Origin: a virus
Lineage: Duplodnaviria > Heunggongvirae > Uroviricota > Caudoviricetes
DNA length: 15,824 bases
Reading direction: 5' to 3' (one strand)
Virus record (IMG/VR): IMGVR_UViG_2663763282_000011
Every line of letters begins with the position of its first letter. The stretch's first letter is position 1. This document shows positions 14,087-14,363 of this stretch, one piece after another. The position numbers and the translations under genes are program-made. The notes under the pieces were generated by a model. That model ran no database searches and was not told the origin of the DNA. It worked only from the letters and a program-made list of their open reading frames with translations.

Positions 14087-14204
14087 AACCCACCAGCCTG
14101 ATTAAAGGTTAACCGGAAAAAAAATCCGGTAGCCCCGTTATGGGGATCCCCATATCGACATTAACGCCCCTCATGAATTGGTGCGCTTCCCCCTGGAAAG
14201 ATTA

Positions 14205-14297
14205 CCCGCCTGTATATTTCTTGTGTCTATTTGTTCCACGTTGTTTCATACAGTGCACCGAACGGTGTAGTTAATGGTGTAGTCAATTTGCGATTTT
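14205..14297. promoter_or_regulatory. Right-junction region carrying a second copy of the capsid-operon control motifs (CCCGCCTGT at 14205-14213; TTGTTCCACGTTGTT at 14231-14245) plus tandem direct repeat GGTGTAGT(T/C)AAT (14264-14286)
   Basis: The 15-bp TTGTTCCACGTTGTT is identical to 6629-6643, and CCCGCCTGT is identical to 6724-6732. Both were compared by eye. Confidence 0.4.
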
Positions 14298-14363
14298 TGG
14301 CACTTTTTCAATGAAAATTGTTTGATCGAATCAATGACTTGATGTAGTGGTAAAAGGACATAT

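Follow-up and report, generated by a model that had tools for sequence, protein, structure and literature searches.

The right end of a capsid-forming PICI beside phoQ as a probable P4-type attP arm with integrase arm-type sites and a candidate AlpA operator

The segment at positions 14200-14300 of a 15,824-nucleotide Caudoviricetes record (IMG/VR IMGVR_UViG_2663763282_000011; the whole stretch is referred to hereafter as the window) is island DNA that lies 70-150 bp inside the right junction and is absent from empty sites. We propose that it represents the P arm (right half) of a P4-type attP, present in the window in its attR form, in which tandem 12-mers would be bound by the integrase and helically phased TTGTT-type units by AlpA, a small protein of excisionase fold. 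This explanation, taken as a whole and including the part assigned to AlpA, seems to us reasonably probable; that the segment is an att arm furnished with integrase arm-type sites is very likely.

The window is a capsid-forming PICI (cf-PICI) endowed with int, alpA, a primase gene and HK97-type head and terminase genes, and is inserted between roxA and phoQ, an attachment site also occupied by the prototype PICI EcCICFT073 (Table 1). The first letters of the window are the int ATG and the attL arm is, therefore, outside it; this arm could be read in an island of Shigella flexneri SFBU1023 that is 99.98% identical to the window over positions 1-6599. A DUF4222 protein is encoded in every Enterobacteriaceae island examined, and an Rfam scan of the whole window matched no RNA family.

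The position of the segment relative to the junction was established by sequence comparison. The crossover core GGACATATTT is common to attB (the empty site of ATCC 8739), attL (a related island) and attR (the window). The phoQ side was matched in all 5426 complete E. coli genomes, and those free of the island match from 14356 onward only. Because the core sits precisely where the match to empty sites begins, 14200-14300 belongs to the island. An earlier, sequence-only reading of the window had named the presence of this stretch at empty sites as the outcome that would refute it, and the comparison did not give that outcome. The right-end segment was found in 886 of the 5426 complete E. coli genomes and alpA in a similar number (913 of 5426); the segment is without annotation in any genome record among those listed.

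Table 1. Features of the window that bear on the organization of the island, its right attachment-site arm and the phased-unit clusters
Feature	Position	Strand	Remarks
int	1..1230	+	P4-type tyrosine integrase; PF13356 Arm-DNA-bind_3 (E 5.2e-18, residues 8-95); PF00589 Phage_integrase (1e-16)
Five phased units TTGTTCGTAG TTGTTCCGCA TTGTTGCTCA TTGTTGCACG TTGTATCTGT	1273..1322	-	between int and alpA
alpA	1605..1793	+	62 aa, winged-helix, excisionase fold; PF05930 (E 5e-18)
DUF4222 gene and D5-type primase	3471-5515		
Truncated PerC-like ORF			after primase
Intrinsic terminator	6578..6605	+	stem-loop and T run; end of the preceding operon, immediately ahead of the phased units
Five phased units TTGTTATTTT TTGTAAATTA TTGTTCGTGG TTGTTCCACG TTGTTCACTG	6598..6649	+	upstream of capsid/packaging operon; three good units (6619, 6629, 6639) and two degenerate ones
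Hairpin with 17-nt stem	6721..6768	+	capsid-operon leader; inverted repeat 94% complementary; contains left CCCGCCTGT
Capsid, protease, portal, head-completion, connector, HNH and large-terminase genes			HK97-type; after PerC-like ORF
Right CCCGCCTGT copy	14205..14213	+	no inverted partner nearby
Three direct TTGTT-type units TTGTGTCTAT TTGTTCCACG TTGTTTCATA	14221..14250	+	10-bp period, unit starts 14221, 14231, 14241; columns invariant across four island lineages in the attR alignment
Tandem 12-mers GGTGTAGTTAAT and GGTGTAGTCAAT	14264..14287	+	general form GGTGTAGTYAAT; candidate integrase arm-type sites
IHF-consensus site AATCAATGACTTG	14329..14341	+	perfect match; between arm sites and core
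Crossover core of attR GGACATATTT	14356..14365	.	overlaps phoQ stop codon
phoQ	14364-15824	-	stop codon 14364-14366

Read toward phoQ, the right arm presents the TTGTT units, 13 bp, the pair of 12-mers (a tandem repeat that the sequence-only reading had located exactly), 41 bp, the IHF site, 14 bp and the 10-bp core. The IHF consensus occurs three times in the window where 0.56 matches are expected, and reading of the aligned sequences by eye found it kept in islands of the phoQ and tqsA types. On the attL side, a paralogous module of about 70 bp, made up likewise of phased units and a 12-mer pair, lies in the same orientation directly upstream of int; in the Shigella island it consists of TTGTTCCAGC TTGTTTCACG TTGTAGCCCT TTGTGCAACG ATC GGTGTAGTTAAT GGTGTAGTTAAT, followed by 22 bp and the int ATG. 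Four phased units and a 12-mer pair are present in the approximately 180 bp that separate the core from int in this island and in three E. coli islands at roxA/phoQ. The attL and attR modules are identical at 52 of 70 positions, and at 69 of 70 in L008, a more distant cf-PICI. The circular form of the island would thus read module, 68 bp, core, about 90 bp, module and int. Pairs of the GGTGTAGTYAAT type lie 68 bp to the left of the core in the window and about 135 bp to its right in L001, L004, L005 and L009. In all lineages a distance of 13 bp separates the phased units from the 12-mer pair, whichever the arm, and the module flanks the core on both sides in every lineage examined, at four different att sites.

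The 12-mers of the right end are, in our view and with a confidence as high as that placed in the att arm itself, putative P-arm integrase arm-type sites of a P4-type attP, because the 12-mers of both arms change in concert with the N-terminal arm-binding domain of Int. The most telling comparison is with L003, a tqsA island of strain 2013C-4991 whose AlpA is identical to that of the window and whose TTGTT units are unchanged. In place of the window 12-mers, L003 carries GGTGTAGTCACT on both arms (one copy ending in CATT), and its Int is 78% identical to that of the window in residues 1-95 and 95% identical elsewhere. Across the islands, N-domains with VRHSTSGLL are paired with 12-mers ending in TTAAT or TCAAT, and those with VKYLTSGKL with 12-mers ending in TCACT. 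Islands at cspD/clpS have retained both the N-domain strand VRHST(S/N)GLL and GGTGTAGTYAAT; rcnR/thiM islands combine an IKHSKGGKL N-domain with TGTGTGGTCAGT; and a metagenomic relative combines IKVTKSGVM with GGTGTAGTCATT, which ends in TCATT. No exception to the pairing of 12-mer type with N-domain type was encountered in the 23 viral-collection loci whose upstream region could be scored, nor in the loci examined by hand, in a set whose lineages are few and mutually non-independent.

The second component of the module, the TTGTT units, came to attention through the 15-mer TTGTTCCACGTTGTT, which is indeed repeated exactly at 6629-6643 and 14231-14245. A single exact 15-mer repeat in 15.8 kb is expected about 0.1-0.2 times by our rough estimate, and is weakly surprising when taken alone. 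Eight TTGTTCCACGTTGTT-like matches with up to three mismatches were found against 0.69 expected, a count reached by none of 200 shuffles, and chains of three or more TTGT units spaced by exactly 10 bp number three in the window and zero in 300 shuffles. The sequence-only reading had described the right-hand copy as the capsid-operon region with one TTGTTC unit deleted; this impression arises because a periodic repeat can be aligned in either of two registers (61% and 71% identity), and both sites have three good units. It had also overlooked the minus-strand cluster at 1273-1322. The latter cluster was found in all related islands, with six units in EcCICFT073, and is inverted relative to the other clusters, about 280 bp from the start of alpA. 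A Shine-Dalgarno-like box and mini-ORF (AAGAGGTGAAAAAG) were noticed by eye after it.

The places at which the units occur are few. In eight loci of about 30 kb each, chains of at least three units were confined to the attL arm, the int-alpA spacer (minus strand, five to six units), the attR arm and, in cf-PICIs, the stretch that precedes the capsid operon, apart from one chance chain in flanking chromosome. The units form invariant columns in the arm alignments, which cover four att-site lineages, and in the capsid-leader alignment, and they stay constant while integrase N-domain and replicase types change.

Two other identities were considered for the units and rejected. The type I iterons of P4 (TGTTCACC) resemble the TTGTT unit, which prompted the idea that the clusters might be replicase iterons. 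Iterons, however, follow the replicase, whereas the clusters are constant across D5-, RepA- and DUF927-type islands. Those found after the replicase gene are CTGTCTACC in the window and CFT073, AAAGTGAG in RepA-type islands, TAACCCGC in DUF927-type islands and CTGTTCACC in L008, the last being identical to the P4 type I iteron. PhoP or ArcA boxes, suggested by the phoQ neighbourhood, have an 11-bp period, unlike the 10-bp-spaced TTGTTC units, and were dismissed on both period and sequence and on the presence of the module at three other chromosomal sites. Because modules sit at four different chromosomal sites in all, we regard the proximity of phoPQ as incidental.

In the leader of the capsid operon, the stem of the terminator that precedes the phased units has been retained in L008 by compensatory changes, and hardly any position of the block TTTTGTAAATTATTTGTTCGYGGTTGTTCCA differs between the window and this divergent island, although the flanks of the block have diverged. 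The CCGCCTG columns of the downstream hairpin are also invariant in L008, where the matching CGGGCGG arm was read by eye. A promoter scan downstream of the capsid-operon cluster returned no convincing hexamers, and the cluster is absent from classical PICIs at the same sites. The other motif that the sequence-only reading had proposed as a shared control element, CCCGCCTGT, does occur exactly at 6724-6732 and 14205-14213, but only the left copy belongs to a hairpin. The two copies are moreover not colinear, CCCGCCTGT following the TTGTT units at the left site and preceding them at the right site, and the right copy has a one-base change in L003 and no counterpart in L006-L008. The right-hand CCCGCCTGT is probably a chance match that stands outside the system.

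Binding sites for one and the same regulator, another suggestion of the sequence-only reading, is the one that we favour, for the TTGTT units only; the 12-mers fall to the integrase as putative arm-type sites, and the attP P-arm context had been missed. As to the regulator, we infer that it is somewhat more probably AlpA than not. At least three direct repeats spaced at one per helical turn lie beside arm-type sites, in islands that encode a small winged-helix protein of excisionase fold. AlpA is the one small DNA-binding protein encoded beside int in all these islands. Its structural model (pLDDT 86.8) has excisionases as best matches, including the GIsul2 excisionase (8c3t; TM 0.83/0.90, 38% identity), RdfS, Pukovnik Xis and TorI. 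Because AlpA has this fold and the units recur upstream of alpA and of the capsid operon, the units are most likely an AlpA operator that would serve both excision and transcription. Recombination directionality factors (RDFs) typically recognize direct repeats with a spacing of one helical turn, and within the P2 family Apl and its relatives act at att sites and promoters alike (PMC7498355).

What has been reported of AlpA is consistent with such a role. The protein is required for PICI excision and induction (PMC6092414, PMC11773190). In EcCICFT073 it activates its own promoter, and its overexpression leads to int-dependent excision and replication (PMC6092414); alpA overexpression likewise drives the reproduction of EcCIEDL933 for capsid purification (bioRxiv 10.1101/2025.02.11.637232). 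Each of these three AlpA-dependent outputs has its counterpart in the placement of the units, on both att arms, ahead of alpA and ahead of the capsid operon, which lends support to AlpA. No description of the DNA sites bound by AlpA in PICIs was found in the literature that could be searched. The AlpA variants sampled (55-100% identity) have the same recognition helix, R-x-x-R-Y/F/W, and their units stay TTGTTC-like; the LGGRSVGW wing is kept in all variants obtained except that of L010. These variants came from a genome contig scan (one locus), a homologue search (19 close relatives), two locus contexts and one viral contig scan. A different unit was met only in distant comparisons (TCCG in P4, CTGTTTC in L010). 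Because the sampled variants share their recognition helix, covariation between AlpA and the TTGTT unit is uninformative.

Other observations weigh on the opposite side. The position of the cluster upstream of alpA is not textbook for an activator, and the failure to find convincing hexamers after the capsid-operon cluster also counts against AlpA. A Pint reporter of EcCICFT073 did not respond to AlpA (PMC6092414). As the units of the attL arm should be part of the reporter fragment, AlpA either leaves the promoter untouched when bound to them or fails to bind them. Candidates for an alternative binder are the DUF4222, Icd-like and YlcI/YnfO-like proteins, which are likewise conserved in all these islands.

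The 12-mers could thus be Int sites in an att arm and the phased TTGTT units be bound by a factor other than AlpA, whether the units form a second class of Int site or are recognized by a DUF4222 or Icd-like protein, by a host response regulator of the OmpR family reading direct repeats, or by the inducer of alpA from a helper phage. We hold this to be unlikely, if deserving of a minority share of our confidence. The units remain unchanged when the N-domain of Int changes, their 10-bp period and TTGTTC sequence depart from the 11-bp PhoP/ArcA pattern, and the modules are found at four chromosomal sites, all of which count against this alternative. A different binder would fit the AlpA-insensitive Pint of EcCICFT073, the conservation of DUF4222 in all Enterobacteriaceae islands examined, the lack of informative covariation between the unit and AlpA, and the finding that transcription of alpA is induced by helper phages (PMC6092414), one of the clusters lying upstream of alpA. 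On the other hand, no protein but AlpA, which has the excisionase fold, is known to be both required and sufficient for excision, autoactivation and the production of capsids (PMC6092414; bioRxiv 10.1101/2025.02.11.637232).

An outward promoter at the right end, reading across the joined ends into int after circularisation and having the shared motifs as its operator, is improbable. In its favour, int, with its start some 180 bp in from attL, is read towards the island interior, which places the attR arm upstream of int after excision, and ICEKp1, ICEclc and ICEEc1 provide known cases of a state-dependent switch to a promoter at the 3' end (PMC13023037). Inspection by eye also picks out a weak TTGGCA-18-TTTGAT at 14297-14326; its TTGGCA hexamer, however, is not conserved among lineages, and a consensus scan of the plus strand over 13500-14420, in itself a weak test, yielded no sigma-70-like site. 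Promoter scans of the right arm, attL arm and capsid leader likewise gave nothing convincing. Given that the attL arm already has a module upstream of int, control of int can be explained without the attR copy. The second promoter that had been suggested for the island end thus finds no support here, and would in any event be compatible with the att-arm reading, to which it would come as an addition and not as an alternative. Lastly, the right-end motifs might be the decaying remnant of an earlier related island, as had also been suggested, or reflect chance similarity. Tandem insertions at PICI sites are conceivable by our own reasoning (none was seen here), and the exact 15-mer is weakly significant by itself. 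Yet both arms of every lineage, at four att sites, carry the module, no columns are better conserved than those of the units and 12-mers, the 12-mers switch together on both arms along with the integrase, and the segment recurs in several hundred E. coli genomes. We therefore reject the remnant, and consider either form of this explanation highly improbable.

The organization of the att arm with its integrase sites and phased units is closest to that of the P4 attP and the KplE1 module, and the arrangement follows the precedents of P4, KplE1 and P2/186 rather than representing a new kind of system. In the GenBank record of P4, the core at 4078-4097 is flanked by two tandem pairs of 12-bp elements labelled "attP arm sequence repeat", one at 3942-3965, a short way upstream of int, and the other at 4151-4174. 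P4 and the present islands have in common a P4-type integrase with an Arm-DNA-bind_3 domain, tandem 12-bp pairs on both sides of the core, one of them just upstream of int, and a small protein of the AlpA/Vis family as excision factor. Reading of the P4 sequence by eye also revealed TCCG-type units phased at 10 bp beside the int-proximal pair. The two systems differ in the 12-mer (TTGGGGGCATAA in P4, GGTGTAGTTAAT here) and in the phased unit, in the presence of phased units next to the 12-mers on both arms here and on one arm in P4, and in the integrase itself, that of the islands being 20-28% identical to P4 Int. The P_LL region of P4 displays an inverted CCGGA/TCCGG arrangement and not phased repeats.

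The P arm of lambda attP consists of P1, H1, P2, X1-X1.5-X2, F and H2. As in lambda, the int-distal arm combines arm-type sites for Int, putative phased RDF sites and an IHF site by the core; unlike in lambda, the phased units of the P arm lie farther out than its arm sites, each arm has one tandem pair of arm sites, and RDF-type units are found on both arms. In KplE1/HK620, int is read inward from attL, which overlaps the int upstream region (Pint), and RDF and arm-type sites are located between the core and the start of int (PMC2951348), much as described here. The RDF gene of KplE1 is uncoupled from int, such that excision is switched by expression of the RDF (PMC2951348), and the AlpA model has TorI as one of its structural matches. 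In contrast to AlpA, which left Pint unaffected in EcCICFT073 (PMC6092414), TorI and IntS repress Pint, and the module is present here on the far (attR) arm as well.

The dual use proposed for the phased units resembles that made by Apl, Cox and Vis of theirs. Apl of 186 and Cox of P2 act on direct repeats spaced by one helical turn at att and promoter regions, one small protein thereby coupling excision with the control of transcription (PMC7498355). Apl and Cox repress early promoters, whereas AlpA activates its own (PMC6092414), and the additional target proposed here is a late capsid/packaging operon. Circularisation brings the right end upstream of int in the islands as it does in ICEKp1 and ICEclc (PMC13023037); unlike in these elements, no promoter was detected in the right arm and nothing is indicative of a promoter switch. 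Specific to the present case are the duplication of the module on both arms and the fact that cf-PICIs carry the same units before their capsid operon.

In the mechanism that we envisage, the N-terminal domain of Int would bind the 12-mers and its C-terminal domains the core, the bridge between arm and core being helped by an IHF-induced bend. AlpA would polymerise head-to-tail on the phased TTGTT units, thereby bending the arms and steering the reaction to excision. The operator upstream of alpA would mediate autoactivation, and in cf-PICIs an extra operator placed just after the terminator upstream of the capsid operon would tie head and packaging expression to AlpA. AlpA of Gram-negative PICIs would then act as a single-protein master switch through one phased TTGTTC operator present at four or five places (both att arms, its own upstream region and, in cf-PICIs only, the capsid operon), a generalization that we advance tentatively and to which we assign slightly less than even chances.

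These results set the exact right boundary of the attachment site that serves EcCICFT073-type PICIs and cf-PICIs, and they lay out its probable functional anatomy. The concerted change of both arms with the integrase allows its putative arm sites to be told apart from a second class of sites, and appears to offer a natural case in which arm specificity has been re-programmed by the swap of an N-domain. For AlpA, which acts as master activator in Gram-negative PICIs, the TTGTT units provide a concrete candidate operator, and their assignment to this protein, if correct, would explain how excision, autoactivation and, in cf-PICIs, capsid production are coupled. If this is true, cf-PICIs would have wired a phage-derived capsid module to the excision factor of the island by acquiring its operator.

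In the window, the major capsid gene carries an in-frame TGA at 7684-7686 (TGG to TGA, Trp to stop) that splits it into 6811-7686 and 7687-8016, so that the cf-PICI in the window can probably no longer form capsids. The near-identical island of Shigella flexneri SFBU1023 is 100% identical to the window across 6577-8608 and therefore has the capsid-gene stop in common with it; E. coli 2014C-3097 has an uninterrupted version of the gene. Runs of N at 8612-8699 and 11191-11352, each preceded by poly-G tracts, resemble the gaps of a draft genome assembly; the ORFs at 8056-8706 and 11174-11467 are unreliable because they cross these runs, and most of the small terminase gene is masked by N.

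Upstream of the capsid operon, approximately 340 bp holding one small ORF and falling between two copies of a terminator hairpin are absent from the window at 6577-6599 by comparison with the related islands L001 and L009. Relative to L001, the window also lacks the SSB gene and has lost the N-terminal part of a PerC-like gene, of which a 53-aa remnant persists at 6394-6555. The operon leader contains a hairpin whose CCGCCTG columns are invariant even in the divergent cf-PICI L008, where a matching arm was read by eye and the loop is longer; it could act as a structured regulatory element in the RNA, or the palindrome could be a site for a protein.

Several other repeats were found [Table]. 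Replication-origin iterons lie 3' of the replicase gene and vary with replicase type (CTGTCTACC, AAAGTGAG, TAACCCGC and CTGTTCACC), those of L008 being identical to the type I iterons of satellite phage P4. Further TAACCCGC/GCGGGTTA repeats at the right end of L008 (27400-27580) may be what is left of a second origin. The perfect palindrome downstream of int could serve as an operator for a dimeric factor, such as the helper-phage inducer of alpA. The phased GTGAC array is a separate repeat within an unannotated stretch of about 790 bp running from the last ORF to the att arm, and the part of the window that holds it had no alignment in CFT073, the strain carrying EcCICFT073.

Coordinates of repeats, palindromes and related features
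Feature	Locus	Position	Details
Extra TGTT(C/T) units	L006	13174-13195	
Extra TGTT(C/T) units	L008	12764-12803	
Extra TGTT(C/T) units	L009	8233-8284	
Chi sites (examples)	window	2046-2053; 12900-12907; 14090-14097(-)	
Iterons	window	5529-5770	
Iterons	L001	7670-7890	
Iterons	L007	18920-19310	
Iterons	L008	19140-19436	
Leader hairpin	window	6721-6768	arms TTTCCCGCCTGTTAATG / CATTACCAGGCGGGAAA; conserved; no T run after
GTGAC x4, 10-bp period	window	13818-13857	gtgacggaga gtgacaacca gtgacacacc gtgacaaaaa
Perfect 16-bp palindrome	window	1249-1264	CAGTATGCGCATACTG; between int stop codon and alpA-upstream TTGTT cluster

On the attL side of L006, L008 and L009, extra TGTT(C/T) units, more degenerate and with a period of roughly 10 bp, adjoin the crossover core and lie between it and the main module of phased units and integrase 12-mers; the protein that binds the main-module units may therefore cover the P' arm over its full length. 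Finally, the window contains 13 Chi sites (GCTGGTGG; 9 on the plus and 4 on the minus strand) against 0.46 expected from shuffles, a density several-fold above the E. coli genome average, and copies of CCACCAGC/GCTGGTGG are also numerous in the right-end non-coding DNA of the related islands L006-L008. These sites may shield the island's DNA from RecBCD when it is linear or concatemeric.
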